Assembly: GCA_965219535.1 (NCBI GenBank) | Contig: CBDCNV010000002.1 | Coordinates: 1,560,001 to 1,592,000, forward strand | Direction of reading: 5' to 3' | Length of the DNA: 32,000 bases | Source: Opitutales bacterium | GTDB lineage: Bacteria > Verrucomicrobiota > Verrucomicrobiia > Opitutales > PNEW01 | Part shown: piece after piece, positions 1,471-27,471 of the stretch | Layout of the letters: every line of letters starts with the position of its first letter | Position numbering within the stretch: the first letter of the stretch is position 1 | Program-made: the position numbers and the translations under genes | The notes under the pieces: generated by a model | Told to the model about the DNA's origin: nothing | The model's input: only the letters and a program-made list of their open reading frames with translations | Databases searched by the model: none

Positions 1471-2304
1471 ATGAAATTATCCCCCGAGGAAATTAACTTT
1501 TTTAAAGAAGAAGGTTATCTCATCAAACGAAAGGTCATGGATGAAGCTCTCATGGCTAAAGCTCGGGATAGATTGTGGGACAACAAGCCGGTTGAATTGG
1601 ATCGCAATAAGCCCGAGACCTGGGTGGGGCCGATTAAAGCGTATAAGGGAAAGATTGATGTCAAGAGTGATAAAAGTAAAGATTCCATTGGCAAGGGTAA
1701 TGACGGTAAAAATTTTAGTTGGCAGTTTCGCAGTATTGGTGACGAAGATTGGATAGTACGAATGCTGGCGACAGATCCCTCGATTTGGGATATGGCTGAA
1801 CAGGTTTTAGGGGTGGGAAAAGTTCAAATCCCTGACCAGATACGGGGTATTTATTGCACCCTCCCAGAAGGAGATATTCCTCTTCAACCCCACAGATGCC
1901 ATACGGATGCGCACGCGTTCCATCTTGGGGTAGTCGGTTACATCGATGATGTGCAACCCAATGGCGGCGGATTTATAATCTGGCCCAAAAGCCACCGGAC
2001 TTTCTATTACGCTTATCAGACTCAACACGGAAACGATCAGGCCGTTCAATACGATGAGTGTATCGAGAAATTCAACCAGCTGCCCTATGTCGAATGCCAT
2101 GGTGAGGCAGGTGACATTGTTTTTTGGCATCATCGATTGGCGCATACCGCCGGACATAACCGTTCGCAGGTGATTCGAAAAGCAGTGCTGTATGATTTTC
2201 GGAAAGTAGACCTCGAAGAAAAAACGAAGGAACCACCGTGCGAGGATATGTGGAGGGACTGGCCTGGGGTTCAGCAGAGCGATACAGTTAGCAAAGTGAT
2301 TTGA
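1471..2304 (+). CDS. phytanoyl-CoA dioxygenase (PhyH) family Fe(II)/2OG dioxygenase
   Basis: N-terminal 'FFKEEGYLI'. H-x-D appears in 'HRCHTDAH', followed by 'WPKSH' and a distal His block 'WHHRLAHTAGHN'. Confidence 0.8.
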   Translation: MKLSPEEINFFKEEGYLIKRKVMDEALMAKARDRLWDNKPVELDRNKPETWVGPIKAYKGKIDVKSDKSKDSIGKGNDGKNFSWQFRSIGDEDWIVRMLATDPSIWDMAEQVLGVGKVQIPDQIRGIYCTLPEGDIPLQPHRCHTDAHAFHLGVVGYIDDVQPNGGGFIIWPKSHRTFYYAYQTQHGNDQAVQYDECIEKFNQLPYVECHGEAGDIVFWHHRLAHTAGHNRSQVIRKAVLYDFRKVDLEEKTKEPPCEDMWRDWPGVQQSDTVSKVI

Positions 2305-2363
2305 ATCTTCAATTGGTCAATAGAGGATTCAAGGTAGCACAAATTACCGTGCCAATAAATAGT

Positions 2364-3848
2364 ATGCAGAGTAATAGACTTCGTATAAATCTTCTTCTAA
2401 GTTGTGTGCTAGCACTGGGGGTGGGTTGTGTGCCCGAATCGATCGACCAAGGGGTCCGTCTCAATGATGTCCACTCGCGGTTGAATCCGACAACGGTTGC
2501 CCAGTATTACGAACCCCAATCTGCAAGGGAGATTGCCGCGATCGTTAAGCGTGCGAAACGATTGGGTAACGCGGTAAGCATAAGTGGCGGTCGTCACGCT
2601 ATGGGTGGACAGCAGTTTGGCGTAGGAACAACCCATATTAATTTATCGCAATTTAATGAGGTGCTGTCTCTGGATGAAAAACGAGGACTCATCACGGTCG
2701 AGTCTGGCATGCAATGGCCGGTATTAATGCAATGGCTATTAACGGAGCAAGAAGGTCGCGAAAAGCAGTGGGGGATTCGTCAAAAGCAAACCGGAGCTGA
2801 TGGTTTATCAATTGGCGGTGCGCTATCTGCGAATGCTCATGGTAGAGGCCTCACCTTAAAGCCGATGATTGGCGATGTCGAATCTTTCAATCTCGTCGAT
2901 GCCGACGGAAAAGTGCGAGAATGCAGTCGTGACAAAAATCGCGAGCTTTTCAGTCTGGCGATAGGGGGGTATGGATTATTTGGCGTTATTACAGAAGTGA
3001 CACTTCGATTGTCTCCGCGCCAGGCGCTGGTTCGCGATGTAGAGATGATCACCGTAGACGAGGTGCCGGAAAAAGTAGAGGAGCGCATACGCGAGGGATA
3101 TATTTATGGTGACTACCAGTTTATGACTGATGAGGCATCACCCGATTTTCTGAGTCGCGGTGTGTTTTCGTTTTACAAGCCAACGAATAAAGTTGTTCCC
3201 GACAGGCAGTCCCAAAATAAACTGAGTAAGGAAAACTGGATTCAGCTTTACCAAGTGGCGCACGTAAACAAATCAAAAGCATTTGATCTTTACAGCCAAT
3301 TTTATTTAACCACCGATGGTCAGATCTATTGGAGCGACACTCACCAGCTCAGTACCTATCTGCAAGGGTATGATGGGGTGATCGATCTAATGCTCAAATC
3401 ACGCGCACCCGGTAGCTTGATGATTTGTGAGTACTACGTCCCACGGTCAAGACTCCCCGATTTTTTCAAACGAATGGGAGCAGCACTTATCGAGACGAAA
3501 GCAAATTTGATTTATGGGACCGTTCGTTACATTGAGGAGGACAATGAATCCTACCTCGCATGGGCCAAGCAGTCATACGCCTGCACGGTCATCAATCTCA
3601 GGGTAGTGCATGACGAAAAAGGAATTGAAGAAGCAAAAAAGCAATTCCGAACGATCACCGATATTGCACTAGATATGGATGGCAGTTACTTTCTGACTTA
3701 TCACCGATGGGCGACCAAGGATCAGGTCTTGAAAGCCTATCCACAGTTCCCTCAGTTCATCCAAAAAAAGCTTCAATTCGATCCGGAGGAACGCTTTCAA
3801 AGCGAGTGGTACCGTCATTATCGAGCGATGTTTGAGGGGAGTGAATGA
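2364..3848 (+). CDS. FAD-linked oxidase (PCMH/FAD_binding_4 type), probably exported or a lipoprotein
   Basis: 'VSISGGRHAMGGQQFG' and 'GGYGLFGVITEVTLRL' are FAD-oxidase blocks. ATG 2364 yields the signal-like peptide MQSNRLRINLLLSCVLALGVGC. The track start TTG 2301 overlaps the upstream stop and remains an alternative. Confidence 0.75.
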   Translation: MQSNRLRINLLLSCVLALGVGCVPESIDQGVRLNDVHSRLNPTTVAQYYEPQSAREIAAIVKRAKRLGNAVSISGGRHAMGGQQFGVGTTHINLSQFNEVLSLDEKRGLITVESGMQWPVLMQWLLTEQEGREKQWGIRQKQTGADGLSIGGALSANAHGRGLTLKPMIGDVESFNLVDADGKVRECSRDKNRELFSLAIGGYGLFGVITEVTLRLSPRQALVRDVEMITVDEVPEKVEERIREGYIYGDYQFMTDEASPDFLSRGVFSFYKPTNKVVPDRQSQNKLSKENWIQLYQVAHVNKSKAFDLYSQFYLTTDGQIYWSDTHQLSTYLQGYDGVIDLMLKSRAPGSLMICEYYVPRSRLPDFFKRMGAALIETKANLIYGTVRYIEEDNESYLAWAKQSYACTVINLRVVHDEKGIEEAKKQFRTITDIALDMDGSYFLTYHRWATKDQVLKAYPQFPQFIQKKLQFDPEERFQSEWYRHYRAMFEGSE

Positions 3849-4753
3849 AAGGCGGGCGACCAAGCGAGACCGCGCTTCTGATCGCAAAAAGCACAGTGAC
3901 AACGGCCGCGAATTCCAGAATTGGGACATTTGTTACAACTGAAGCGGCCGAGACCTGTGAGTGGTTTTTGAGAGATCACCTCTTGTTTGGAAGACTGCGC
4001 TTGGGATTATTCAGGAGCGCCTGGTACCAGGCTTACCAGAGGGCACTCGAGTCGCAAATCATTCCCGGGATTCAACTCCACTACGCATTGCGAAAGCTGC
4101 AGTTGGAGCGATTTGCACAAATATCGCTAGAGCGCAACGCCCGACAGGTAATTGTCCTGGGCGCTGGATTTGATACCTTGTGCCTGCGGCTCACGGACCA
4201 GTATAGGCAGGTTACTTTTATTGAGATTGACCATCCCAATACGCAAATGCTGAAGGTGCAGAGTTTAAGCGAACGTGGAAAGCAACCGGACAATCTACAT
4301 TTTATTTCAAACGATTTTATGGAGATAGATTTATCAGCTGTCCTTCAAGACAGTGATAGTATCGATAAAAAAGCTCCAACACTTATTATTGCCGAGGGAC
4401 TTTTGATGTATCTCAACGAGCAAGTCGTAGGAAAGCTTCTTAATACGATGAGGGATACGTTTCAAAGTGGTTGTTTCGTCGCATTCACCTTTATGGTACC
4501 CGATGATTCTGGAAAGATTCGATTTCATAACTCGAGCCGACTCGTTGATTGGTGGCTGCAATTCAAGAATGAACCATTCACCTGGGGGATGAAGGTAAAG
4601 GATGTGAATAAATTTCTTTCCTCCTGTGGTTTTACCTTAATTGAAATCGTCGATGATGACGTATTGAGGAAAACATATTTAGACCCCAATGGGGTAGGAC
4701 AAGCTACACTAGCTGTCGGCGAGTACCTCGGATTTGCTGAAGTAGGGATATGA
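3845..4753 (+). CDS. SAM-dependent O-methyltransferase (leucine carboxyl MT / TIGR00027-like)
   Basis: 'VIVLGAGFDTLCLRL', 'EIDHPNT' and 'IIAEGLLMYL'. The start ATG overlaps the upstream stop (ATGA). Confidence 0.75.
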   Translation: MKGGRPSETALLIAKSTVTTAANSRIGTFVTTEAAETCEWFLRDHLLFGRLRLGLFRSAWYQAYQRALESQIIPGIQLHYALRKLQLERFAQISLERNARQVIVLGAGFDTLCLRLTDQYRQVTFIEIDHPNTQMLKVQSLSERGKQPDNLHFISNDFMEIDLSAVLQDSDSIDKKAPTLIIAEGLLMYLNEQVVGKLLNTMRDTFQSGCFVAFTFMVPDDSGKIRFHNSSRLVDWWLQFKNEPFTWGMKVKDVNKFLSSCGFTLIEIVDDDVLRKTYLDPNGVGQATLAVGEYLGFAEVGI

Positions 4754-5424
4754 ATATTACTGAACCGGCCACTTTTGCCACGGACTTGCTTATCAGCGGA
4801 TTTTCCTGTTTTTTTCTGCTGCAACTCATACGTAAATATCGAGACGCGCATTCACTCTCCGTTTTATTTTGGGCTTTGGGATTTTGTTCTTTAACCATAA
4901 GTGCATTAATGGGTGCGATCTTTCACGGCAGTGGTTACTGGTTTGAGCAGTCACTCCGCGATGCCATCTGGATGGTGACGCTCGTTACGATGATCGCAAT
5001 GAGTGCCTTTCTTCTGAGTGCAGTCGCTTTTAATGCTCTGGAGGGAAGGTATAAGACGGCGGCATTGTCGTTGATTATTGTGAAAGCGGTGGTTGTATTA
5101 ATCTGGATGCTGAACGATACCCGATTCGTTGTTGCGATCTGTGATTATGGTGCTTCGATGGCATGTATCGCGGTTATGGCAATACTCAGACTTCGTGGAA
5201 GCTGGAAGAAACCCGGCCGGTGGATACTCAGCGCGATTGCTTTGTCAATCGTGGGTAGTGTCATCCAGATAATGAAGTTGGCACCGCACCCGCACTTTAA
5301 TCACAACGATGTTTTTCACCTCATACAACTCGCAGGTAATTGGCTTTTTTATCGAGCGGCCCTGGTTTCCACCGACCGAAGTGGTAAAGTGAATGAGGAA
5401 TTAGAAATGATGAATGAGAAATGA
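4750..5424 (+). CDS. seven-TM integral membrane protein of unknown function
   Basis: Seven hydrophobic segments by eye. The His-rich stretch 'HPHFNHNDVFH' precedes the last segment. ATGA overlap with the upstream gene. Confidence 0.6.
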   Translation: MNITEPATFATDLLISGFSCFFLLQLIRKYRDAHSLSVLFWALGFCSLTISALMGAIFHGSGYWFEQSLRDAIWMVTLVTMIAMSAFLLSAVAFNALEGRYKTAALSLIIVKAVVVLIWMLNDTRFVVAICDYGASMACIAVMAILRLRGSWKKPGRWILSAIALSIVGSVIQIMKLAPHPHFNHNDVFHLIQLAGNWLFYRAALVSTDRSGKVNEELEMMNEK

Positions 5425-5846: not shown

Positions 5847-6620
5847 ATGAAATTTTCAGGAAAAATGGAACAGGCATTGGCTGACCTCGGCGTCACGTCG
5901 GATCTTTTGATGGAGGATGAAAGGAAATTTCTCGATGAGCAGGGTTATTTAATTATTCACGACGTACTTTCACCCGATCAGATCCAAGCATTTACTGTAC
6001 GACTTGATGAGTTGGCGAAACTGGAAGGAGAAGATGCAGGGAAGGAAGTCCATCAGGAAGAAGGGACTGACAGGTTGAGTAACCTTATCGATAAAGACCC
6101 CATGTTCGAAGTCTGTATTACTCATCCAAAGGTGCTTGCCGGCATCGCGCATGTCTTGCAAAAAGATTTTAAACTTTCGTCGTTAAACAGTCGCGCCTCA
6201 TTGCCGGGATCGGGACATCAACGATTTCATACTGATTACAGTAAACCGGTAAAGCCTGGCGAATACGTTGTCTGTAATTCTATCTGGTTAATCGATGATT
6301 TTAATAAGACTAATGGCGCGACAAGGGTAGTTCCCGGCAGTCACCGGAAAGAAAAATTACCACAGGACGAGATGGACGATATTCATGCCTCGCATCCTGA
6401 CGAAATACAATTACTTGCACCTGCGGGAACGGTTGTCGTTTTTAACTCTCATCTCTGGCATGGAGGTACTAAGAATGAGAGTAGGGCACGGAGACACGCC
6501 ATGCACTCCTACTTTTGCCACCGTGAATATGAGCAGCAGCTCAATCAACACGAGTACCTGAGACCGGAAACTGTAAACCGACTTTCAGTTGCAACCCGTT
6601 GGATACTCGATGTAGGTTGA
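5847..6620 (+). CDS. PhyH family Fe(II)/2OG dioxygenase
   Basis: 'FLDEQGYLIIHDVL', H-x-D in 'RFHTDYS', 'VVPGSH' and a distal 'HLWHGGTKN'. The start is ATG 5847 or ATG 5865. The TTG 5700 start in the track runs through a repeat-bearing spacer and is unlikely. Confidence 0.75.
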   Translation: MKFSGKMEQALADLGVTSDLLMEDERKFLDEQGYLIIHDVLSPDQIQAFTVRLDELAKLEGEDAGKEVHQEEGTDRLSNLIDKDPMFEVCITHPKVLAGIAHVLQKDFKLSSLNSRASLPGSGHQRFHTDYSKPVKPGEYVVCNSIWLIDDFNKTNGATRVVPGSHRKEKLPQDEMDDIHASHPDEIQLLAPAGTVVVFNSHLWHGGTKNESRARRHAMHSYFCHREYEQQLNQHEYLRPETVNRLSVATRWILDVG

Positions 6621-6633
6621 AGGCTTTCAACTC

Positions 6634-8879
6634 TCATGGCGCTTGTGCGCCTTGCTTCACTTTATCGATTAGTTCGAAATTGAGAGCCGTGGTCTGCATC
6701 CGCCGCAAAGAGAACTTTTGAATTTTACCATGACCGTAAGACAGGGCTTGATTATCATCTGTAACTGGAAAGCCCATCGAAGCATAGCGTTTACACTCCT
6801 CGGCATTCAGGCGAATGGCCTTTTGTACCGCTTCCCGGGTTAACAATCGCTGACGTTCGTGGCGTGAAAAACCCGGCCAAGTTGCACCAAAATTTTCGTC
6901 GTATGGTCCCCAGCGCCCTAAGAGAATACCGGTACCATCACGCGGTTCCACCCAGAGTACGGTTTGTTCAAAGACAGCCTGGAAAGCGGCTGTTATGTAG
7001 ACACTATGTTCAGGTGTAACGAGGTGAAAAGGAAGCCACTGAGCGACAATGGCACCCTCTTTTAGACGCGTTGCCATGACCTCGTAAAATTCCTGCGCAT
7101 AAAGAGCATTTGATCCTGCAAAGTTTGGGGGCATGGGTTCCAAGGTGATAATATCATAGCTGCTATTCGTTCGTCTCAACCAGGCTCTTCCATCCATTGT
7201 GATACTCTGGACACGTGGATCGTCGAGCACACCGTGGTTCGAGGTAAAGTGTTTTGCCATCGCAAAGACAGCGGGATTGATGTCGACGATATCGAGCTGT
7301 TCCGGCTCTTCATCTCTCACCGCATGGGCGGTTCTACCGGTACCGAAACAAATAACAAGAGCCTCTTTAGGATCGGGATGCATGAGCATAGGGAGCCGCC
7401 CCATCCAATCCATATAATCGGTATAATCCGTTTCACCGGTTGTTGTGAAACCATCAATAAGTAAAATGCGCCCCTGTTCTGTATCCACAGTCGCCGAGGT
7501 GACATCGGCTCCTTCGTGAATCTCAATAATCTGATGGGGTTTGTTGCGCACCGCGCGCCCTTGCGCTCGGTAACGGCCAACGCCGGAATCAAAAGCAATC
7601 GCTACAAAGAGCGAAGCTCCCCCAAGAAAGAGACCGACAAAACGTTTTCGTCCTTGCATTAACCCGAAGGCAAATAAGAGCAACAAGATAGCAGTAAACC
7701 AGGCAGTACGGCTCGAACCTATGGTCGGTAACAAAAGCCAGGCCGCAAATATGGATCCAGTAATAGCGCCCAAAGTGTTCAGACCATAATACAATGCCCA
7801 CTGCTTTGGCGTTTCTGACAAGTCGAGAATCCAAGGAAGCGTTACTCCAATGACTAAAATAGGCGGGCCCATAACGCCGAGGGAAAGTCCTAACCAGCCC
7901 GCGGTCCGCACCCAATAATTTCCTGGAAAACGAGCGAACAAATCGAAACGTTCAATAAGCGGTGTAGCCATTAAGATAAGACAACCCGCGAGGAATAAAA
8001 TCCAACTCAGAGCCACCCCCAGTTTACGCAATCGGTTGGCTAGAGCGGCACCTAGAGCTAAACTGACAAGCACGGCAAACAAGACCAAGGCAAAGACTTC
8101 GGTGGTGCTTGAAAAGGCGGCTCGAATAGAGCGAAACCAAATGACTTCGAGGGTAAAGGTAACAAAGCCGGTAAGAAACACCGCGACACAAGCGGAACGA
8201 GGCGACAGCTCTAAATGATCCATAACATGTCGGTCAACCTTTGCTGGTATTTCAACTTTTGGCTTTCGTATCCAAGCAGCGATGACGATTGCAAATAGGG
8301 CGACGGAGAAATTGATCATGCTGATCACCGTTGTCGTGAAAATAACTCCCCAATTTGGAAAGAAAACAAATGCCAACAAATACACGCCCAAAGCGGCTCC
8401 GGCCGTGTTGATCGCGTAAAGCCGCGCCAGTGACAGATTAAAGTTGCGAGCCAAGAGCCCAATAACCGGAATGGTCGCGCCCATGGCCATCGCCGGAAGG
8501 CTCAAGAGAAGAGACACGCCAATAATATTAAAGAGAGAGGCCAATGCTGGAAATTGCCGATAAACTTCACCATCAAGATAGGATAAGAGCGTGAATCCCG
8601 GTTTTAACAACAACCGGACACACCAATGATCCCTTCGAGAAGCGCATAGAGCCGCAGTGGAACAACGGTATTTTGCCGACTCAGCAACGATCCCATTAAG
8701 AACGAGCCAACAGTCATGCCCCCCATCGTTGTCGCAAGGGTGATCGCCGTCCCTTCCGCTGACACGCCAAAGGTCAGCGATGCATAATGCTGCCATAACA
8801 ACTCCCACGACAAAGCCGCAATCCCGGCACAAAATACAAGTATGGCCAGCCCAACACCTTTTGACTTTAAGACATTCAC
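6634..8879 (-). pseudogene. fused polytopic-membrane / spermidine-synthase-like protein, split by a 1-nt frameshift near 8613
   Basis: The 91-aa ORF (8604-8879) ends ...YALLEGIIGVSGCC*. The 732-aa frame continues LLLKPGFTLLSYL... one base out of frame. The C-terminal part carries a spermidine-synthase-like block 'LVICFGTGRTA...DIVDINP...DIITLEP'. Confidence 0.7.
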
Positions 8880-9018
8880 TTTAATCTGGAAAATGTTAAC
8901 TGACTAACCGCTGCTGCTCGGTGAAAACCCGTTTTAGGTAAAATTAGCTAAGCTCATCTTTTTAATTGCCGTCATTTTATTCGTCTTAAAGAATGTAACT
9001 AAATAAACAGGAACATAA

Positions 9019-9798
9019 TTGGAAGATTATACGCAATATAAAGAGAGCTACGATCGCGATGGATTTGTCTTAATACGAAACTTTCTATCGGCGGATGAAT
9101 GCGAGCCGTTGTTCGCAGCCCTCGATCGCTATATCCGCGAGGTGGTACCTTTAATTCCAGACGAGTCCGCTTTCTACCAGGACAAGTCACGACCCGAGAC
9201 GCTGAAGCAGATGCACCATCTAGCAAAATATGAACCGTACTTCGAGGAGTATAGTCGCCACCAAAAATGGAATGTCCTGGCCAGAACCTTGATCGGCGAG
9301 GAAGCTCACTCAGCAGGTCCCGAGTGGTTTAACAAGCCGCCGAAAACAGACCATCCCACACCGCCTCACCAGGACAACTTTTATTTTAAGCTCAGCCCTC
9401 CTAATGCTGCCTCGGTCTGGATGGCTATCGATCCGGTCGACGAGGAAAACGGATGTTTACGCTACAATCCCGGTTCTCACCTGCGAGGTATTCGTCCGCA
9501 CGCACTGACATCCGTCCTTGGATTTTCGCAGGGCATTACCGATTACGAATCTAAAGATGAAGCGATGGAAGTGATGGTGGAAATGCAACCGGGTGATGCC
9601 GTTGTCCATCACGGAGATGTCATCCATCGCGCCGAACCGAACAAATCAACTACCCGACATCGTCGAGCTTTTGCTATGATATACTATGGCGTGAGTTGTA
9701 AAGTTGACGAGGAGGCAAAGCAGATACTTGATGAAAACTTAAAAAACCAGCATCGTGAGATGGGACTTGATACCGAAACATCTGTGATTAACAGTTGA
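9019..9798 (+). CDS. PhyH family dioxygenase, tandem paralog 1
   Basis: TTG start. 'DGFVLIRNFL', H-x-D in 'PPHQDNFYF', 'NPGSH' and distal 'VVHHGDVIHRAEPN'. Confidence 0.8.
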   Translation: MEDYTQYKESYDRDGFVLIRNFLSADECEPLFAALDRYIREVVPLIPDESAFYQDKSRPETLKQMHHLAKYEPYFEEYSRHQKWNVLARTLIGEEAHSAGPEWFNKPPKTDHPTPPHQDNFYFKLSPPNAASVWMAIDPVDEENGCLRYNPGSHLRGIRPHALTSVLGFSQGITDYESKDEAMEVMVEMQPGDAVVHHGDVIHRAEPNKSTTRHRRAFAMIYYGVSCKVDEEAKQILDENLKNQHREMGLDTETSVINS

Positions 9799-9819
9799 TA
9801 AAATCAAACAGGACTGAAA

Positions 9820-10602
9820 ATGGACGACTATACGCAATATAAAGAGAACTACGATCACAATGGATTTGTCGTAGTACGGAATTTTCTATCACCGGATGAA
9901 TACGAGCCATTGTTTTCGGTCCTCGAACGCTTCATCCGCGAGGTGGTACCTTCAATCCCAGACGAGGCCGCATTCTACCAGGACAAGTCACGACCTGAGA
10001 CGCTGAAGCAGATGCAGCACATGGCAAAATTTGAACCGTATTTCGAGGAGTATAGTCGACACCCAAAATGGAATGCACTGGCCAGTACCTTGATCGGCGA
10101 GGAAGCTCACACGACAGGCCCCGAGTGGTTTAACAAGCCGCCACAAACAGATCATCCCACACCCCCTCACCAGGATAACTTTTATTTTAAGCTCAACCCT
10201 CCAAATGTTGCTTCGGTCTGGATGGCAATCGATCCGGTCGACGAGGAGAATGGCTGTTTACACTACATTCCCGGCTCTCACCTGCGGGGTATTCGGCCGC
10301 ATGCACTGACAACCGTCCTTGGTTTTTCGCAGGGCATCACCGATTACAGCCCCAAAGATGAGGAGATGGAAGTGATGGTAGAAATGCAACCGGGTGATGC
10401 CGTTGTCCATCACGCAGAAATCATCCATCGCGCCGACCCGAACCAAACAGCAAGCCGACACCGTCGCGCTTTAGCCATGGTATACAACGGCGTGAGTTGT
10501 AAAGTCGACGAAGAGGCAAAGCAGTTACATATAGAAGAATTTAAAAACCAGCACCGTGAGATGGGACTTGATACGAAGACACCTGAAGCGAAAGTGAATT
10601 AA
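9820..10602 (+). CDS. PhyH family dioxygenase, tandem paralog 2
   Basis: ATG start. Colinear with paralog 1, with roughly four fifths of residues identical by eye. Same H-Q-D and distal His motifs. Confidence 0.8.
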   Translation: MDDYTQYKENYDHNGFVVVRNFLSPDEYEPLFSVLERFIREVVPSIPDEAAFYQDKSRPETLKQMQHMAKFEPYFEEYSRHPKWNALASTLIGEEAHTTGPEWFNKPPQTDHPTPPHQDNFYFKLNPPNVASVWMAIDPVDEENGCLHYIPGSHLRGIRPHALTTVLGFSQGITDYSPKDEEMEVMVEMQPGDAVVHHAEIIHRADPNQTASRHRRALAMVYNGVSCKVDEEAKQLHIEEFKNQHREMGLDTKTPEAKVN

Positions 10603-10609
10603 AGGATTA

Positions 10610-13186
10610 ATGGTCAAAAGGTCAAAAGGTCAAAAGGTCAAAAAGTCAAAAAGAGAAACATGGCCTGTCCTCACTGAATATGATCAAGAGCACTTAACGC
10701 GAATTGCCTTACCCCTGGGTGGTATCGGCACAGGAACTATTTCACTGGGGGGCCGTGGTGATCTGCGTGACTGGGAAATTGTCAACCGACCGGCGAAAGG
10801 GTACGTACCGAAAGAAACTTTTTTTGCAATCTACGTTGAAGGTGGCGGACATAGTCCGGTTGTTCGCGCTTTAGAAAGCGTTCTCGAGCCACACGAGTTA
10901 GAGGGCTTTGGTGGTTGTCTGACACCTAACCACCACTACCCGCGATTTCGAGCCGCATTGTTTCAGGCGGCGTATCCACTTGGGCGCGTGCAACTTTCCG
11001 ACCCCGAGGTCCCTGTCGATGTCGCGATTGAAGGATTCAATCCCTTTGTCGGTGCCGATGATTATGTCAGCGGTATTCCGACTGCGATTCTTCGCTTTGT
11101 AATCTCAAACAAAACCAATAGTCCCCTTAAAGTCTCCGTCTGTGGTAATATTAATAACTTTATTGGCCGGGATGGTGGCGAGGGTGCCCCCTCTAAGAAC
11201 TTCAACGAATTTAGAAAGTCGGAAGAAGTCCAGGGACTCCACATGTCTAGTAAAGGAGTTAATGAGAGTGCGGAAGGCTTCGGCACCATGGCATTGACGA
11301 CGACCGCGACAACGGGTGTGAGCCACCGCACCAACTGGGGCAATCGACCTAAAGGGCAGGACTCACGTCTAGGCTTCTGGGATGATTTCAGTGCTGATGG
11401 AACTTTAACGGAACAAACGGGAGGTAAATCGGATGACCCCACTGCATCTCTTTGCGTTAAGACGGAGGTTGGGCCGCACGGGAACGAGGACATTAGCTTT
11501 CTTATCACCTGGCATTTTCCTAATCGAATGACTTGGAGCCCAAGAGTGGATGCAGCCTCCGATACCAGCGAAGGAATTCAGTGCTGTGACACCGCTCACG
11601 ATAGGATCGGGAACTATTATACCACCCAGTACAAAGATGCCTGGGATGTAGCTCAAAAAACAGCCGCATCTTTAGATGATCTTGAAGCGAGGACGGTCGA
11701 ATTTGTGAGAACGTTCTGCGAAAGTGATCTTCCCCGGGTTGTGAAAGAAGCTGCCCTTTTTAATCTCAGTACCCTGCGCACGCAGACCTGTTTCCGCACT
11801 GATGATGGAATGTTTTACGGTTGGGAGGGCTGCCGTGACGATGAGGGTTGTTGCATAGGATCGTGCACCCACGTGTGGAATTATGAACAGGGAACGGCGT
11901 ATTTTTTTGGGGCGCTGGCATTCAAAATGCGCGAGGTCGAGTATCTCCATGCAACGGACGATCGAGGACTCATGTCATTCCGTGTTAATCTTCCTCTCGG
12001 AAATGCTCTCGATTGGGGGTATGCGGCTGCCGATGGCCAGATGGGCTGTATGATGAAACTCTATCGTGACTGGCAGCTATCGGGTGATGATGAGTCGCTG
12101 AGAAAGATGTGGCCTATGGCGCGTAAATCGCTGGAGTTCTGCTGGATTCCTGGAGGATGGGACGCGGACAAAGACGGTGTAATGGAAGGCTGTCAGCACA
12201 ATACGATGGACGTAGAGTATTACGGCCCTAATCCACAGATGGGGATTTGGTACCTCGGTGCCCTCAGGGCAGCTGAAGAGATGGCGAAGTATCTTGGAGA
12301 TGACTCATTCGCATCAATATGTTCCGATCTTTTCAATAGGGGAAGAGCGTGGCTCGACAATAACCTGTTCAATGGTGAGTACTATGAACACGAAATTCGT
12401 TCTCCGAAGGCGGGAGACACGATCGCCGAGGGTCTGCAGCATGTGACAACAATTTCTCCCGATGAAGAGCCTAAATATCAATTGGGGGCTGGTTGCCTTG
12501 TGGATCAGCTTGTCGGGCAATTATTAGCCCATGTTTGTGACTTGGGTTACCTGGTGGAGGAAAAAAATGTCAAGACAACCTTAAACAGTATATTAAATTA
12601 CAATTTCAAAGAAAACTTTTATGACCACTTCAACCCAAACCGTAGTTATGTTTTAAACGACGAGAGTGCCCTGTTAATGGCATCCTTTCCAAGAGGTCGC
12701 AGACCGGTAATTCCTTTTCCCTATTTCGGTGAGGTCATGACTGGCTTTGAGTATACCGCTGCCATCGGCATGCTCTATGAAGGAAAAATCGAAGAGGGGC
12801 TGAAATGCATACAGGCAATACGCGACCGCTATGATGGAAGAAAGAGAAATCCGTTCGATGAGGCTGAATGCGGTCATCACTATGCCCGGGCTATGGCTGC
12901 ATGGGCGGCGGTCCTCGCCCTGACAGGATTCCATTATTCGGGAGTAGAAAAATCGATGACCTTTACCGCGAAAGACGGAGTCCATTTCTGGTCTAACGGG
13001 TACGCCTGGGGAACCTGTGAACAGAGGTATGAAAATGGCGGTGTCGATGTTGGACTCACGGTTAAGCATGGAGACTTAAGCTTGAGCCGCTTTACACTGA
13101 AAGAATACGGTGAGGTTACATTTGACACGCCGCAAAAAATCCATGCAAAGGAAAGTGTCTCTTGGCTTATAGAAAAGACGAGGTAA
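10610..13186 (+). CDS. GH116-family glycoside hydrolase (GBA2 / bacterial DUF608 type)
   Basis: N-terminal domain signature 'ALPLGGIGTGTISLGGRGDLRDWEIVNRP'. Catalytic-domain block 'WEGCRDDEGCCIGSCTHVWNYEQ'. AAGGA lies upstream of the ATG. Confidence 0.8.
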   Translation: MVKRSKGQKVKKSKRETWPVLTEYDQEHLTRIALPLGGIGTGTISLGGRGDLRDWEIVNRPAKGYVPKETFFAIYVEGGGHSPVVRALESVLEPHELEGFGGCLTPNHHYPRFRAALFQAAYPLGRVQLSDPEVPVDVAIEGFNPFVGADDYVSGIPTAILRFVISNKTNSPLKVSVCGNINNFIGRDGGEGAPSKNFNEFRKSEEVQGLHMSSKGVNESAEGFGTMALTTTATTGVSHRTNWGNRPKGQDSRLGFWDDFSADGTLTEQTGGKSDDPTASLCVKTEVGPHGNEDISFLITWHFPNRMTWSPRVDAASDTSEGIQCCDTAHDRIGNYYTTQYKDAWDVAQKTAASLDDLEARTVEFVRTFCESDLPRVVKEAALFNLSTLRTQTCFRTDDGMFYGWEGCRDDEGCCIGSCTHVWNYEQGTAYFFGALAFKMREVEYLHATDDRGLMSFRVNLPLGNALDWGYAAADGQMGCMMKLYRDWQLSGDDESLRKMWPMARKSLEFCWIPGGWDADKDGVMEGCQHNTMDVEYYGPNPQMGIWYLGALRAAEEMAKYLGDDSFASICSDLFNRGRAWLDNNLFNGEYYEHEIRSPKAGDTIAEGLQHVTTISPDEEPKYQLGAGCLVDQLVGQLLAHVCDLGYLVEEKNVKTTLNSILNYNFKENFYDHFNPNRSYVLNDESALLMASFPRGRRPVIPFPYFGEVMTGFEYTAAIGMLYEGKIEEGLKCIQAIRDRYDGRKRNPFDEAECGHHYARAMAAWAAVLALTGFHYSGVEKSMTFTAKDGVHFWSNGYAWGTCEQRYENGGVDVGLTVKHGDLSLSRFTLKEYGEVTFDTPQKIHAKESVSWLIEKTR
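10613..10652 (+). repeat. five tandem copies of the octamer GTCAAAAG/A inside codons 2-15 of the GH116 gene
   Basis: 3 x GTCAAAAG followed by 2 x GTCAAAAA, starting directly after the ATG. Confidence 0.95.
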
Positions 13187-13208
13187 ATGAGGTAAGCACA
13201 AAGCTATA

Positions 13209-14084
13209 ATGAAAAGCATAACTACCGAAAAGCGTGAGCAATTAAATAAAGACGGATATTATGTGTTCGAAAATATCATCGAACCAAAGTTTTTGGATCA
13301 GTTAAGAGAGCTTACTGATAATATCCTAGCCAAGCAGGACAAATCCCATTTCGAGGAGCAAATATCGACCGGCAGTATGGTCATGATCGATTGGGAAATG
13401 GCCTACGAACACAATGTCATGGCTGAATTCATCTCCCATCCGAGGATGCTCGCAGCGATGGCTGAACTTGGTTTCAATGAACCTAAATTCGGTCATGGAC
13501 GCATAATCAGCAAACCGCCTCACAGCCCCCAGCTTTACTGGCATGAAGATGGTCGATTCTGGGATGATCCGGTGAGTTACACCACACAGCCCATACAGTG
13601 TTTTCTAATGGTCTACCTGACCGACACGACACCACAGAACGGTTGTTTAAGAGTGATTCCCGGTTCGCATTTGAAACGCCACCCGTTGCATGATCAGGTC
13701 TCCCCAAAATCTACTGTAGAGCTACGTACTTATAGCAATCCAGAAGACAAAGCCTTCCAGCGTGTAATGGGAGAGATCGATGTGCCGATGAAGGCTGGTG
13801 ACCTGGTGATGGGATACGGTACCCTGTTTCACGCCGCACATGGCAATCAGAGCAATCAGCACCGGACGGTGCTCACGATGTGGTATTATCCAGACTTCGT
13901 CAATTTACCTGAGAACTCACAGGCCACAGTTGCCCATGTAGAATCCACGGGGGCCTTAAATCAAGATGTCGCGGGATCATCGCACGAAAAGGCGCGGACT
14001 TTGATGGAACCTCTGAGGATCAACTATGCAGGAGATGCTGAACTCATCCCGATACAGTGGGTTCCGGGAGCGGCTCTTAAGTAG
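13209..14084 (+). CDS. PhyH family dioxygenase
   Basis: 'KDGYYVFENII', H-x-D in 'YWHEDGRFW', 'VIPGSH' and distal 'LFHAAHGNQSN'. Confidence 0.8.
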   Translation: MKSITTEKREQLNKDGYYVFENIIEPKFLDQLRELTDNILAKQDKSHFEEQISTGSMVMIDWEMAYEHNVMAEFISHPRMLAAMAELGFNEPKFGHGRIISKPPHSPQLYWHEDGRFWDDPVSYTTQPIQCFLMVYLTDTTPQNGCLRVIPGSHLKRHPLHDQVSPKSTVELRTYSNPEDKAFQRVMGEIDVPMKAGDLVMGYGTLFHAAHGNQSNQHRTVLTMWYYPDFVNLPENSQATVAHVESTGALNQDVAGSSHEKARTLMEPLRINYAGDAELIPIQWVPGAALK

Positions 14085-14129
14085 GTAAGAACCATAAGTT
14101 TTGATTACAGATTGGCTTCTATTGACCTC

Positions 14130-14948
14130 ATGGTTTCAGATCTCGACATTTATCTCTTTGATCTTCGCGGTTACCTCGTTCTGGAGAGAGCTATTGAACC
14201 AGATCATGTGAAGGAATTGAACGCGATTCTCGATGAGATGCCGCATCTCAAACCTGATGAATGGCACGGTTACATTCATGGAGGTGTTCTCGATATCCCG
14301 ACAGTGGGGACCACCCTGTATCAGATCTATGAAGCAGGTGAACCTTTCGAACGACTCATCGACAGTCCTTCCTGGATAGAACATGTGAAGACCTTTGTTG
14401 GCGGTCAGAATTCTTTCGACTCTCAACACGGGCCACTATTTATTGACGAAAATTTCGTCATCATACGGGGACCGGGCGAAGCGGCAGGTCTGCATGGCAG
14501 TTGCATTCCCTGGTCCAAGCGAACGCAGTTTCATGTCCAAAACCAGGAATTCAACTGCGGGATGATTAACATCATCATGGCCCTTTCCGATATTGGCCCC
14601 GATAATGGTCCGACGATGGTGATACCAGGCAGCCACAAATCAAATTTCCGCAATCCGGATTTTGAACCGGAAAAGATTAAAGCCAGGAATAAAGCTGCGG
14701 ATAGCGCCACTGGTGCGATTGAAGTTCATCTGAAAGCCGGTGACGCACTTCTATTCGTCGATTGTCTCAACCACGGGGCTAAGCGTATGATTTCCGGTGA
14801 ACGTCGCACCGTTATTTATCGTTACGGACCTTCCTGGGGATTTTTTCGAGACAGTTACCGACCTTCAAAGGAGCTTCTCACTCGGCTTACTCCCGAACGG
14901 AGAAAAATTGTCTGGCCGCATGGTAAGATTGAGAATAGCCCGTATTGA
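14130..14948 (+). CDS. PhyH-like protein with H-G-S in place of H-x-D
   Basis: 'FDLRGYLVLERAI', 'AAGLHGSC' (His codon at 14493-14495), 'MVIPGSHKSNF' and distal 'CLNHGAKR'. ATG 14130 is preferred over TTG 14112 by alignment with the paralog at 26567. Confidence 0.7.
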   Translation: MVSDLDIYLFDLRGYLVLERAIEPDHVKELNAILDEMPHLKPDEWHGYIHGGVLDIPTVGTTLYQIYEAGEPFERLIDSPSWIEHVKTFVGGQNSFDSQHGPLFIDENFVIIRGPGEAAGLHGSCIPWSKRTQFHVQNQEFNCGMINIIMALSDIGPDNGPTMVIPGSHKSNFRNPDFEPEKIKARNKAADSATGAIEVHLKAGDALLFVDCLNHGAKRMISGERRTVIYRYGPSWGFFRDSYRPSKELLTRLTPERRKIVWPHGKIENSPY

Positions 14949-15064
14949 ATATTGTCATAAATCAATCTACAACTGGAATTTATTAAGTTTTGCGTTTTTT
15001 TCTAAACCGGTGGACTATCCTTTGACGCTGATCATGCGTTGCATTTTTTTTAATAATTAAATTT

Positions 15065-15799
15065 GGGTCATGCCTAGAACAGAGGGTATCTTAAGCACAT
15101 ATTAAGGATGTTACGATGGAGGTTTTGATGACGATGGTTAAAGCGATATTCAGTTTCTTTGAGGTGCAGTTGGAAGGTCCTACGAGAAAGACCTTTGAAC
15201 TTAGCCAATCGAAGTTTAGCAAAAGCCCAAAAAGATTCAATCCCGTTAATGTGGGAGTGTCCCTGGGCAAACTCGTTGTCGTTGTGATTGACACGGTAAT
15301 GCTTCTTATAGCCCAGATCCACGAGGCCGTTGTAAGCACGCCACCCGTCAGAATAAAGCACACTGTCAAAAGTAACTCTCCCTTGGATCACCGCATGCAG
15401 AGCGGCTCTGGAGACGTTGCGTACAACCTGGGTATAGACTTTCCCATTACGCTTGAGCAACCCGAAGACGGGCACTTTCTTGAATGCACCCCGACCTCTT
15501 TGCCCTGGAATTCTTTTGCCTCCAAAGTAGGACTCATCCATTTCCACCGACCCCCTAAAAGGCGAGGCCTGCGCACATTGCTGCAACAAACGCTCCCGCA
15601 ACAAGCGCAAATAACGGTTGACCGTGTTACGATTCAATCCTGTCAATTGGGTTATCTTCAACGCTTCCATATCCAAGCTAAAACACTTTACTAACTGCCG
15701 AAATTTGGCCTCAGAAATTTTTGAACGATGTACATACTTATTTCTCATTTGTCTAGAATAGCTTACACATCTGATATGTGTCTATTCTAGGCATGACCC
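15065..15799 (-). mobile_element. IS1595-family (IS1016-like) insertion sequence, 735 bp
   Basis: Terminal inverted repeats GGGTCATGCCTAGAA(C/T)AGA, with the first 15 bp perfect. Flanked by the 8-bp direct repeat TTAAATTT (15057-15064 and 15800-15807). Confidence 0.9.
15074..15748 (-). CDS. IS1595/ISXO2-like DDE transposase
   Basis: 'VEMDESYFGGKR', 'SDGWRAYN' and 'HINGIESFW' motifs. The stop codon lies inside the left inverted repeat. Confidence 0.85.
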   Translation of the reverse strand: MRNKYVHRSKISEAKFRQLVKCFSLDMEALKITQLTGLNRNTVNRYLRLLRERLLQQCAQASPFRGSVEMDESYFGGKRIPGQRGRGAFKKVPVFGLLKRNGKVYTQVVRNVSRAALHAVIQGRVTFDSVLYSDGWRAYNGLVDLGYKKHYRVNHNDNEFAQGHSHINGIESFWAFAKLRLAKFKGLSRRTFQLHLKETEYRFNHRHQNLHRNILNMCLRYPLF

Positions 15800-20310: not shown

Positions 20311-21237
20311 TCATTTCGTCAACTCCTCATAGGTTAGTCTCCGACCAATGCACGCTTGAATGAAACTATCCAGTCGGGCGAGTGTGTGGCGCGTGCAGTT
20401 TCCTTCATTTAGTCTGAAAGAAAATTCGTTTACGTAACGTGCCAAATGCTTTGGGCTTGCGTGATGGTAGACACCATGTAGACCCCGCTTTAGAACTGAA
20501 AATACGCTTTCAATGCTGTTTGTGGTCACGTCTCCCCTAGAATATTCACCTTCTCCATGATTTACCGTTTCGTGCTGGAAAAATAATCCGTCAACTGGGA
20601 TGTATGATTTCGCTTCATCGCTGTGGATTTTTGACCCCACCTCAATATTCTTGTGGACATGTTTTAATATTGTATTTGAGTCCACGCTTTTTACTGGGGT
20701 TGCAATGGTTTTCCCGTTCCGCTCTCGCATTCCGAGAACTGGAGTCTTCCCAATTGAGCCACGGCCTAAGTTGACTTTTTTCTGCTCATGTTTGTTCCCT
20801 TCTTTCCCTCCGATGTAGGTTTCATCGATTTCAACGATCCCTCGGAGTTTTGGAAGATCTTTCCCGCATGCTTCTCTGAGTCGCTGGAGAATAAACCAAG
20901 CTGTTTTTTGGGTGACACTGATTTCTTTAGAAAGTTGCAGCGAACTAATTCCTTTACGAGCAGTAACCAGCAGATACATTGAATATATCCATTTTCTCAA
21001 AGGAACGTGTGAGCGTTCGAAAATCGTGCCCGTTCTAACGGTGAAATCTTCTTTGCAATTGTTACAACGGAAATAGCCAACCCTTTTCCTTTTTGTGATG
21101 TTAGTTTGCTTGTCGCAAACCGGACATTGAATATCATAAGGCCACCGGCGAGACTCCAAAAAGAGTCTCGCGGTGTTTTCGTCTGGAAACATTTCGAGTA
21201 ACTGAAACGTGCTGATCGTTAGGTTATCTTGTGCCAT
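20311..21237 (-). CDS. IS1595-family transposase (N-terminal zinc ribbon plus ISXO2-like DDE domain)
   Basis: 'CPVCDKQ...FRCNNCKEDF', 'VEIDETYIGGKEGNKH', 'HSDEAKSY' and 'TNSIESVFS'. Confidence 0.88.
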   Translation of the reverse strand: MAQDNLTISTFQLLEMFPDENTARLFLESRRWPYDIQCPVCDKQTNITKRKRVGYFRCNNCKEDFTVRTGTIFERSHVPLRKWIYSMYLLVTARKGISSLQLSKEISVTQKTAWFILQRLREACGKDLPKLRGIVEIDETYIGGKEGNKHEQKKVNLGRGSIGKTPVLGMRERNGKTIATPVKSVDSNTILKHVHKNIEVGSKIHSDEAKSYIPVDGLFFQHETVNHGEGEYSRGDVTTNSIESVFSVLKRGLHGVYHHASPKHLARYVNEFSFRLNEGNCTRHTLARLDSFIQACIGRRLTYEELTK

Positions 21238-26454: not shown

Positions 26455-26566
26455 GTCTCATCTGCAACAGCCCCGTCCCATGGCTAAGTTTTAACCGATC
26501 GCGTAGATCTTGACTCGTCTGAGGGGGGAATTCAGATTGGCTCGTCATGGAGCGAACACCGAATCG

Positions 26567-27328
26567 ATGATCAGTCCGGAAGAGAAGTTCAGGTTCGATT
26601 TGCAAGGTTATCTGGTGGTCAAGAACGCCCTCGCGCCCGAAGAGGTGGCGGAAATGAACCGGATTGCCGACGAGATGTATACGGAAGATTACGACGAGAA
26701 GAGAATGCGTTCCCGTCAGCACGTATCGCAGTGGGGGCCATCCTTTCAATCGCTTATCGACCATCCCTCAGCCTTACCCTATCTGGTGGAATTCCTTGGA
26801 CCGAAATTCCGTATCGATCATGATTATAACATTTTTATGATTAAAGGAAGCGCGCACGGGCGCATTCACGGGGGACCCGCGCTGGAGACCGGGATCGAGG
26901 AGGACCACTGGTACCGTTGCCACAAGGGAGTGATCCGCAATGGACTGACGGTTTTTACTTATTGCCTTACACCAGCGGGTCCAGGAGATGGGGGTTTTAT
27001 TTGTGTTCCAGGATCTCACAAGAGCAATTTCGTGATGGATATCCCGGAAGAGGTGAAGTTGCAGGAAAGCAATGCCGATTACGTTGTCCAGCCGACGGCG
27101 GAGGCTGGTGACCTGATAATATTTACAGAGGCTCTCGTTCATGGCACTCGTGCTTGGACGTCAGATCACGAGCGACGTGCCCTGCTCTATAAATACAGTC
27201 CAGGGCACTCTTCATATAGCCAGACTTACTATTGTCTGGAGGATTACCCGAACGCGACAGAACAGCAGTTGCGGATCATGGCAGCTCCGTCCGTCGGTAG
27301 CCGCCCCAATAGTATCCAGTCTAAGTAA
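26567..27328 (+). CDS. PhyH-like protein with H-G-G in place of H-x-D
   Basis: 'FDLQGYLVVKNAL', 'GRIHGGPALE' (His codon at 26867-26869), 'ICVPGSHKSNF' and distal 'EALVHGTRAW'. ATG 26567 is preferred over TTG 26510. Confidence 0.7.
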   Translation: MISPEEKFRFDLQGYLVVKNALAPEEVAEMNRIADEMYTEDYDEKRMRSRQHVSQWGPSFQSLIDHPSALPYLVEFLGPKFRIDHDYNIFMIKGSAHGRIHGGPALETGIEEDHWYRCHKGVIRNGLTVFTYCLTPAGPGDGGFICVPGSHKSNFVMDIPEEVKLQESNADYVVQPTAEAGDLIIFTEALVHGTRAWTSDHERRALLYKYSPGHSSYSQTYYCLEDYPNATEQQLRIMAAPSVGSRPNSIQSK

Positions 27329-27375
27329 CCGGCGAGTCATCCATGCACCACGGATTAAATCCACAACAGTTTCAG

Positions 27376-27471
27376 CAGTTCCATGGTGATACATTGTAAG
27401 ACCATGCCCGAACCGCACCGAGACGGCGAGAACAATGTAAGATTTACCTTCGCGCGGTCGGGGTTACTGCG
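27376..27471. promoter_or_regulatory. conserved intergenic module, copy C (core plus right arm only)
   Basis: CAGTTCCATGGTGATACATTGTAAGACCATGCCCGAACCGCACCGAGACGGCGAGAACAATGTAAGATTTACCTTCGCGCGGTCGGGG. It ends directly at ATG 27472. Confidence 0.6.

Follow-up and report, generated by a model that had tools for sequence, protein, structure and literature searches.

Why would a bacterium place one glycosidase among four oxygenases? The question is raised by a five-gene array at positions 9019-14948 of a 32-kb window (the whole stretch of DNA analyzed here, 32,000 nucleotides of contig CBDCNV010000002.1 from an uncultured marine Opitutales bacterium), in which a glycoside hydrolase of family GH116 is preceded by two and followed by two members of the PhyH family of Fe(II)/2-oxoglutarate (2OG) oxygenases (A1 and A2 upstream, B and C downstream). 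The PhyH family is named after phytanoyl-CoA hydroxylase, and GH116 includes GBA2. An original prediction, made from the DNA letters, had placed five plus-strand genes here and assigned their families, and both stand: the open reading frames (ORFs) lie at the coordinates given, and the assignments (PhyH PF05721 four times, GH116 once) score well above the Pfam gathering thresholds. We propose, tentatively and at somewhat under even odds (roughly 0.45), that these genes form a clade-specific cytoplasmic catabolic operon with which marine Opitutales would process an imported furanoside-type glycoside, built around a conserved core that also takes in a further PhyH gene upstream (U2).

Comparison with related loci (designated here by L numbers) delimits this core. 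The nearest genome, an Opitutales (Verrucomicrobiota) metagenome-assembled genome (MAG; OY829953.1), encodes a GH116 93% identical to that of the window; the related contigs are marine metagenomes, and GH116 identities across the clade are 93, 92, 84, 76 and 71%. PhyH genes stand on both sides of GH116 in L005, L001, L087, L002, L133-135, L086 and L139, with PhyH-A directly 5′ and B directly 3′ of it at every clade locus, and U2 orthologs lie directly 5′ of PhyH-A in L133 and L139. Most informative is L139, with the order U1, U2, A, GH116, B, redoxin, YchF: it lacks both C and the operon for an FAD oxidase, a methyltransferase and a DUF6962 protein, yet U2-A-GH116-B is intact. L002 has C at a distance of 8 kb, and in L001 an additional PhyH gene stands ahead of it; in the window and in L005, U2 and A are parted by an inserted minus-strand gene, and A is duplicated. 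Because the core is intact in L139 and elsewhere while its surroundings change, the invariant unit is U2-A-GH116-B and not the five-gene array. The minus-strand gene, which encodes a fused membrane/spermidine-synthase-like protein, is absent from this position in L133, L139 and L002 and present in L005 as judged by spacing; it is a lineage-specific insertion that splits U2 from the array, outside the module. That relatives keep GH116 and PhyH adjacent, as originally expected, is therefore true of one Opitutales clade (GH116 71-93% identical), where the conservation ends.

The array has an operon-like layout because its genes share one strand, are separated by gaps of 21, 7, 22 and 45 nt, have AGGA-type ribosome-binding sequences (upstream of A1, A2 and the GH116 gene), and show no convincing promoter or terminator within the array in a consensus scan, although that scan returned no more sites than in shuffled sequence and is thus neutral on the operon question. 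To judge from this layout, the array is probably a single co-transcribed unit, and the terminator-like hairpin past C is a possible, if weak, candidate for its end (Table 1). For C, the ATG start at 14130 yields the 45-nt gap and a protein of the same length as the ortholog calls in L001 and L133; a TTG at 14112 is a second possible start. NCBIfam offers an equivalog for none of the five array proteins, every match being far under cut-off, and Rfam and tRNA scans over the whole window were empty, leaving no riboswitch as a clue to a ligand.

Table 1. Coordinates of the array, its conserved upstream partner and other features of the window.
Feature	Position	Strand	Details
Four-gene unit	1471-5424	+	Overlapping stops and starts
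PhyH U1	1471-2304	+	First gene of the four-gene unit
PhyH U2	5847-6620	+	257 aa from ATG 5847 (mechanical ORF from TTG 5700); Pfam E 6.5e-27
Fused membrane/spermidine-synthase-like gene	6634-8832	-	732 aa; NCBIfam MFS_SpdSyn 75 bits vs cut-off 40
PhyH A1	9019-9798	+	259 aa; TTG start; Pfam PhyH E 3.5e-39
PhyH A2	9820-10602	+	260 aa; Pfam PhyH E 2.3e-37
GH116	10610-13186	+	858 aa; Pfam N-terminal domain E 7e-57, catalytic domain E 5e-36
PhyH B	13209-14084	+	291 aa; Pfam PhyH E 6.2e-26
PhyH C	14130-14948	+	272 aa from ATG; Pfam PhyH E 3.7e-20
Terminator-like hairpin and T-run	15023-15049	+	75 nt past C stop; consensus scan and sequence
IS1595-family transposase	15074-15748	-	224 aa, probably truncated
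IS1595-family transposase	20311-21237	-	308 aa
Seventh PhyH	26510-27328	+
GHL10-like gene	27472-29142	+	556 aa; 143 nt past seventh PhyH; weak Pfam GHL10, 29 bits vs cut-off 27.9

The GH116 protein consists of an N-terminal beta-sandwich (PF12215) and an (alpha/alpha)6 catalytic domain (PF04685), both over the gathering threshold. By a wide margin, its closest solved structure is ExoMA2 (PDB 8IC6/8IC7), which matches over the full length with an E-value of 5.7e-134, whereas TxGH116 and GBA2-type entries match the N-terminal domain only, at about 1e-18 to 1e-11; no subfamily 1 structure gave a significant match to the catalytic domain in this PDB search. ExoMA2 (MIAR_33170 of Microbacterium arabinogalactanolyticum) is the founder of GH116 subfamily 4, a retaining exo-beta-D-arabinofuranosidase that is inactive on para-nitrophenyl-beta-glucoside; it uses Glu431 as nucleophile and Asp557 as acid/base, and Arg483 and His446 recognize O2 of the arabinofuranose, their beta-glucosidase counterparts being His507 and Asp452 (PMC10509167). 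In a HMMER alignment, E406, D534, H421 and R458 of the window enzyme correspond to ExoMA2 Glu431, Asp557, His446 and Arg483, and none of the four varies among 241 homologs drawn from two GH116 clades. The beta-glucosidase positions (His507/Asp452 in TxGH116) are occupied by Arg and His. The window GH116 is best read from these residues as a furanosidase-type enzyme of the subfamily 4 (ExoMA2) kind, and as cytoplasmic because it is without a signal peptide, as are all array proteins judged from their sequences. A GBA2- or beta-glucosidase-like enzyme, as first considered, is not borne out by either the E-values or the O2-recognizing residues, and regardless of any coupling to the oxygenases, a GH116 of ExoMA2 type should not carry a glucosylceramidase annotation.

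This GH116 family is large (7394 matches) and unusually conserved, its members in Planctomycetota, Chloroflexota, Latescibacterota, Acidobacteriota and other phyla sharing about 60% identity; a look-up by exact sequence returned no record for the window GH116 or for three further proteins. Among its orthologs in Planctomycetota, a fused 3-keto-disaccharide hydrolase (DUF1080)/ThuA gene lies upstream at 5 of 33 loci (for example, L011 5085-6659), and in Chloroflexota, permeases of ABC sugar transporters are found upstream (6 of 131 neighbor proteins).

Seven PhyH proteins of at least five divergent types are encoded in the window according to Pfam (45-136 bits, against a cut-off of 22 bits), three of them outside the array. 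A1 and A2 are 80% identical as proteins and 87% identical as DNA over 767 nt, and this high identity marks them as a recent tandem duplicate, so that the array holds three PhyH types and not four; the original count of "four distinct" oxygenases is right for the genes and wrong for the types. Both carry a canonical H-Q-D...H triad (PTPPHQD and IIHRA in A2) and a 2OG-binding Arg in RHRRA. The ligand residues of A2 align with those of its best solved relatives, which are EvdO2 (4XAB, 1.4e-18), human PhyH (2A1X, second best at 3e-16), SnoK (4e-14) and SnoN (1e-10). U2 has a canonical H-T-D...H triad, with OkaE and KanJ as PDB neighbors at about 2e-7, and U1 shares its HTD motif. EvdO2, SnoK, SnoN and KanJ act on sugar moieties of antibiotics. 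The triad of B is H-E-D...H (YWHEDG, LFHAAHGN), with H112, D114, H208 and R219 invariant in 25 aligned sequences, and its family comprises 799 relatives, reaching 60-67% identity across Chloroflexota, Caldilineaceae, Latescibacterota, Poribacteria and Opitutales. Inactive paralogs, which the original prediction had considered as a way for its proposal to fail, were not encountered: every PhyH paralog retains its metal and 2OG ligands (His/acid/His plus Arg, in a modified form in C), and by these residues U2, A, B and C look like competent Fe(II)/2OG oxygenases.

PhyH C departs from this canonical pattern. The H-x-S motif first noticed in it is real (LHGS, with H122 and S124) and kept in every clade ortholog, and the metal site reads H122-G-S124 ... 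D211-x3-H215, followed by R225/R226. A relocated acidic ligand is described for HygX, the hygromycin B orthoester synthase, whose metal site reads H-x-G...E-x3-H (PMC13374393). C matches HygX (4XC9/4XCB) with an E-value of 8e-9, and D211-x3-H215 falls opposite the HygX E-x3-H. In 51 full-length or near-full-length relatives of C, the consensus is H-x-G-G...F-x-[DE]-x3-H-G...RR, with Gly at the triad position in 45 and Ser in three, and with Asp (29) or Glu (15) four residues ahead of the His. A predicted structure of C (AF2 model, mean pLDDT 83.3) retrieved only HygX chains among its top 15 PDB matches in Foldseek, with E-values down to 7e-17 and TM scores of 0.65-0.74. On this alignment and predicted fold, the H-x-S of C is a HygX-type variant with a relocated carboxylate and not a defect. 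In HygX, Lys137 is proposed to fill the vacated ligand position and tune reactivity; its equivalent is not kept in C, where the HMMER alignment places an Asn. Halogenases of the SyrB2/WelO5 type lack the carboxylate ligand (H-x-A/G) without replacement, which leaves a halide site; such an Fe/2OG halogenase is rejected for C because of the conserved D-x3-H carboxylate, and the NCBIfam chlorinating-enzyme model scores only 18 bits against a cut-off of 226. Since a whole family carries the relocated carboxylate, an H-x-G/S PhyH should not automatically be called inactive or a halogenase, whether or not the array proteins share a pathway. Not every clade member has C in place: L139 lacks it, and in L002 and L001 it is displaced.

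The seventh PhyH of the window is likewise of the HygX type (IHGG...E-x3-H). Together with the GHL10-like gene that follows it, it makes up a second PhyH/glycosidase-like pairing in the window (26510-29142).

If the array works as we propose, an imported small glycoside or oligosaccharide would enter the cytoplasm, where GH116 would cut off a terminal beta-furanose by a retaining double displacement through E406 and D534, the leaving sugar most likely being of the D-arabinofuranose type and not glucose. Either ahead of this cleavage or following it, the PhyH enzymes would hydroxylate or otherwise oxidize unactivated carbons in the sugar or in the aglycone of the same substrate class, and the oxidized products would become accessible to central metabolism. 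None of the results points specifically to the chemistry originally proposed, in which methyl, alkyl or sulfate substituents would be removed. We favor a single pathway because the core is stable amid turnover, because the gaps are very short, because the arrangement recurs outside the clade, and because A, C and U2 have sugar-acting relatives. The recurrence comes from a search anchored on PhyH-B, which yielded 48 metagenome loci (three from the same clade): on an unrelated Tara Oceans contig (L100), a GH116 with only 37% identity to the window enzyme is followed after 33 nt by a B ortholog (61% identical), and this adjacency is a genuinely independent occurrence. As to the relatives, the closest solved structures for A and C are sugar-directed oxygenases (EvdO2 and SnoK/SnoN, and HygX, respectively), and U2 has KanJ as one of its best matches.

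Several results weigh against this reading. No PhyH gene lies within 8 kb of a GH116 that is 67% identical, and none of the 79 species-representative genomes with a 55-62% identical GH116 has an orthologous PhyH neighbor. Any PhyH at all lies within 8 kb in 3/79 (L031, L040 and L061; mutually unrelated, about 23% identity), and three PhyH genes in roughly 0.94 Mb of flanking sequence is, on a rough comparison, about the level of scattered genes. Three relatives (61-62% identical) of the L100 GH116 were searched and no PhyH was found nearby, and about 14 further B loci, with long flanks and heterogeneous neighbors, lack a GH116. The array unit includes no gene for a transporter, a regulator or sugar catabolism. 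The PhyH proteins resemble sugar-directed oxygenases only weakly (E-values of 1e-8 to 1e-18), and the PDB sample of the PhyH family is skewed to natural-product enzymes. For B, a fold search with its AF2 model (pLDDT 85.5) found generic PhyH-fold neighbors only (TM about 0.55), and this model-based comparison is uninformative on substrate. Finally, the whole 18-kb neighborhood is syntenic in the clade, YchF and redoxin included, and conservation within the clade may be simple vertical inheritance.

Many of these points favor the explanation that competes most closely, namely that the locus is a hot-spot of PhyH paralogs that oxidize differing small molecules of dissolved organic matter, with GH116 as a passenger that perhaps shares their promoter but acts on another substrate. 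We consider this quite possible, if doubtful. Seven PhyH genes of such divergent types in 32 kb make adjacency to any single gene cheap, and relatives are similarly dense (six in 22.6 kb of L001, eight in 22.5 kb of L002) while differing in their PhyH content. The recent tandem duplication of A1/A2 fits the same picture, as do the housekeeping genes that share the clade-wide synteny, the rank of another PhyH as the commonest neighbor of B elsewhere (8 of 119 neighbor proteins), and the solitary occurrence of GH116 and B orthologs, each alone in nearly all other lineages. What a hot-spot accommodates less readily is that U2-A-GH116-B is invariant while flanking genes turn over, that only 7 and 22 nt separate GH116 from its neighbors, and that GH116 and B are again adjacent in L100 despite 37% identity of the glycosidase.

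Neighborhood profiling of GH116 orthologs and of B orthologs revealed no conserved partner from which a pathway could be named. Besides other PhyH proteins, the neighbors of B include parts of ABC transporters, Gfo/Idh/MocA proteins, GH109, GH5, a GMC oxidoreductase and a xylose-isomerase-like TIM barrel, so the B neighborhoods have a carbohydrate flavor and no fixed partner. At one marine locus (L104 6054-12713), a B ortholog lies near a GMC oxidoreductase, a PhyH-A ortholog, a short-chain dehydrogenase/reductase, a xylose-isomerase-like TIM barrel and a Gfo/Idh/MocA protein, an enzyme set reminiscent of keto-glycoside and C-glycoside cleavage systems. On a contig of a Chloroflexi MAG (L061, MKTJ01000061.1), a PhyH gene (7098-7925, plus strand) stands 37 nt upstream of a GH116 on the same strand (7962-10511); this PhyH is about 25% identical to the window paralogs and unrelated to them. 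The PhyH genes of L031 and L040, also unrelated, lie 1-2 kb downstream of GH116, and three cases among 79 are too rare for enrichment.

A second alternative is that the genes form a biosynthetic or tailoring unit, in which the oxygenases, together with methyltransferases and the FAD oxidase encoded upstream, would modify a glycosylated metabolite or envelope glycan that GH116 trims or transglycosylates. Among solved structures, A and C come closest to the orthosomycin oxygenases EvdO2 and HygX, the upstream genes include Methyltransf_23 and LCM/TIGR00027 methyltransferases and an aldonolactone-oxidase/DprE1-like FAD oxidase, and ExoMA2 is capable of transglycosylation in vitro (PMC10509167). 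However, glycosyltransferases, a sugar-nucleotide pathway, polyketide or nonribosomal peptide synthases and an exporter are all absent from the window, L139 keeps the core without the upstream operon, and the Asn of C at the HygX Lys137 position also speaks against such a role. Members of the GH116 family, moreover, are widely found beside keto-sugar enzymes and permeases of ABC sugar transporters; such neighbors point to catabolism, and we judge biosynthesis improbable. Least credible of all is the glycolipid explanation entertained in the original prediction, in which a GBA2-like glucosylceramidase would free glucose and the PhyH enzymes would hydroxylate a branched or alkyl lipid as in phytanoyl-CoA alpha-oxidation: GBA2 does belong to GH116 and human PhyH is the second-best PDB match of A2, but the window GH116 is ExoMA2-like in its E-values and in the Arg and His that replace the beta-glucosidase residues, and an acyl-CoA ligase, a 2-hydroxyacyl-CoA lyase and a lipid-handling gene are absent from the unit.

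A bolder form of the catabolic operon is that U2-A-GH116-B(-C) constitutes a new catabolic route, in which PhyH oxygenases would act directly on carbohydrate and join a GH116 of the furanosidase type in taking apart an unusual glycoside of marine origin, such as a furanoside of the D-arabinofuranose type or one modified in another way; we rate this as unlikely, though well short of far-fetched. To our knowledge, sugar-directed members of the PhyH family have so far been seen only in antibiotic biosynthesis (EvdO2, HygX, SnoK/N and KanJ), and such a route would be the first case in which sugar-directed PhyH oxygenases, and a metal site like that of HygX, serve catabolism as marine organic matter is turned over. 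The literature that we searched contained no description of a GH116-PhyH unit, and on PhyH expansion among marine bacteria or Opitutales it offered only generic readings as phytol alpha-oxidation or antibiotic enzymes. If the coupling is true, two large enzyme groups of marine and soil bacteria, this GH116 clade and the PhyH-B family, both highly conserved and uncharacterised, would gain their first physiological role, and PhyH-type oxygenases would be placed in sugar catabolism, as against the phytol-degradation reading in papers on other marine bacteria.

Further features were noted in the remainder of the window. The upstream four-gene unit encodes U1, an FAD-linked oxidase, an LCM/TIGR00027 S-adenosylmethionine-dependent methyltransferase and a membrane DUF6962 protein, and is conserved in L002 and L133 and absent in L139. 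The best PDB matches of the oxidase are L-galactono-1,4-lactone dehydrogenases, alongside a weak full-length match to the DprE1 model of NCBIfam; a DprE1-like link to D-arabinose was considered and left unsupported, given those aldonolactone dehydrogenase matches and the absence of the operon in L139. Downstream of the array, the two IS1595-family transposase genes bracket a block encoding redoxin, YchF, a 309-aa protein and an aldehyde dehydrogenase; L133 and L139 have no insertion sequence (IS) there, and the aldehyde dehydrogenase, at 493 aa compared with 528 aa in L002 and L133, has possibly lost its 3′ end to an IS insertion. Base composition steps at about position 22,000, from a G+C content of 0.42-0.50 on the left (0.38 at 21-22 kb) to 0.51-0.62 on the right, where the window encodes a DMFA2_C protein, a porin of the phosphate-selective type, the seventh PhyH, the GHL10-like protein, an Nramp-like transporter and an enolase-superfamily sugar-acid dehydratase (249 bits to the L-talarate/galactarate dehydratase model). 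A Weimberg-type pentose route built from the aldehyde dehydrogenase and the sugar-acid dehydratase was rejected, as the family matches are insufficiently specific.

Several known systems resemble parts of the unit. With ExoMA2, the window glycosidase shares the two-domain GH116 architecture, the Glu nucleophile, the Asp acid/base, the O2-recognizing His and Arg and the lack of a signal peptide, by which both are expected to work inside the cell as exo-enzymes, but it is roughly 40% identical (by local alignment) and belongs to a separate, very conserved clade. The D-arabinan utilization loci of Microbacterium and Dysgonomonas differ in possessing a GH172 exo-alpha-D-arabinofuranosidase and a GH183/DUF4185 endo-D-arabinanase, and a locus of that kind was rejected here because GH172 and GH183 are absent both from the window and from the 131 neighbor proteins of the 33 orthologous loci. 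HygX (PDB 4XC9/4XCA/4XCB) is closest to C by sequence and fold, with a small residue at the acid position and a carboxylate four residues before the distal His; C differs in having Ser for Gly and Asp for Glu, both conservative changes, and Asn at Lys137, in its identity of about 20%, and in standing outside any aminoglycoside biosynthetic context. EvdO2, SnoK, SnoN and KanJ have in common with A2 and U2 the canonical HxD...H triad, but they come from actinomycete biosynthetic clusters, none of which is present here, and human PhyH and PHYHD1 score about equally.

The closest pathway logic is that of the sulfo-ASDO route for sulfoquinovose in marine bacteria, which employs the Fe/2OG dioxygenase SqoD with SquF and, in some clusters, the sulfoquinovosidase YihQ (PMC10507154). 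Its components are different: SqoD is a TauD-type enzyme (PF02668) and not a PhyH, YihQ is not a GH116, and no SquF homolog, YihQ-type sulfoquinovosidase or sulfonate transporter was found in the window. The original prediction knew of no pathway joining one glycosidase to four such oxygenases, and this holds for the number of oxygenases, since sulfo-ASDO has a single one, but not for the pairing itself. In both cases a glycosidase is encoded with Fe(II)/2OG oxygenases, and in the sulfo-ASDO cluster the two act on the same sugar in catabolism; under the reading that we prefer, the enzymes of the Opitutales array would act on one substrate class, at its sugar or its aglycone.

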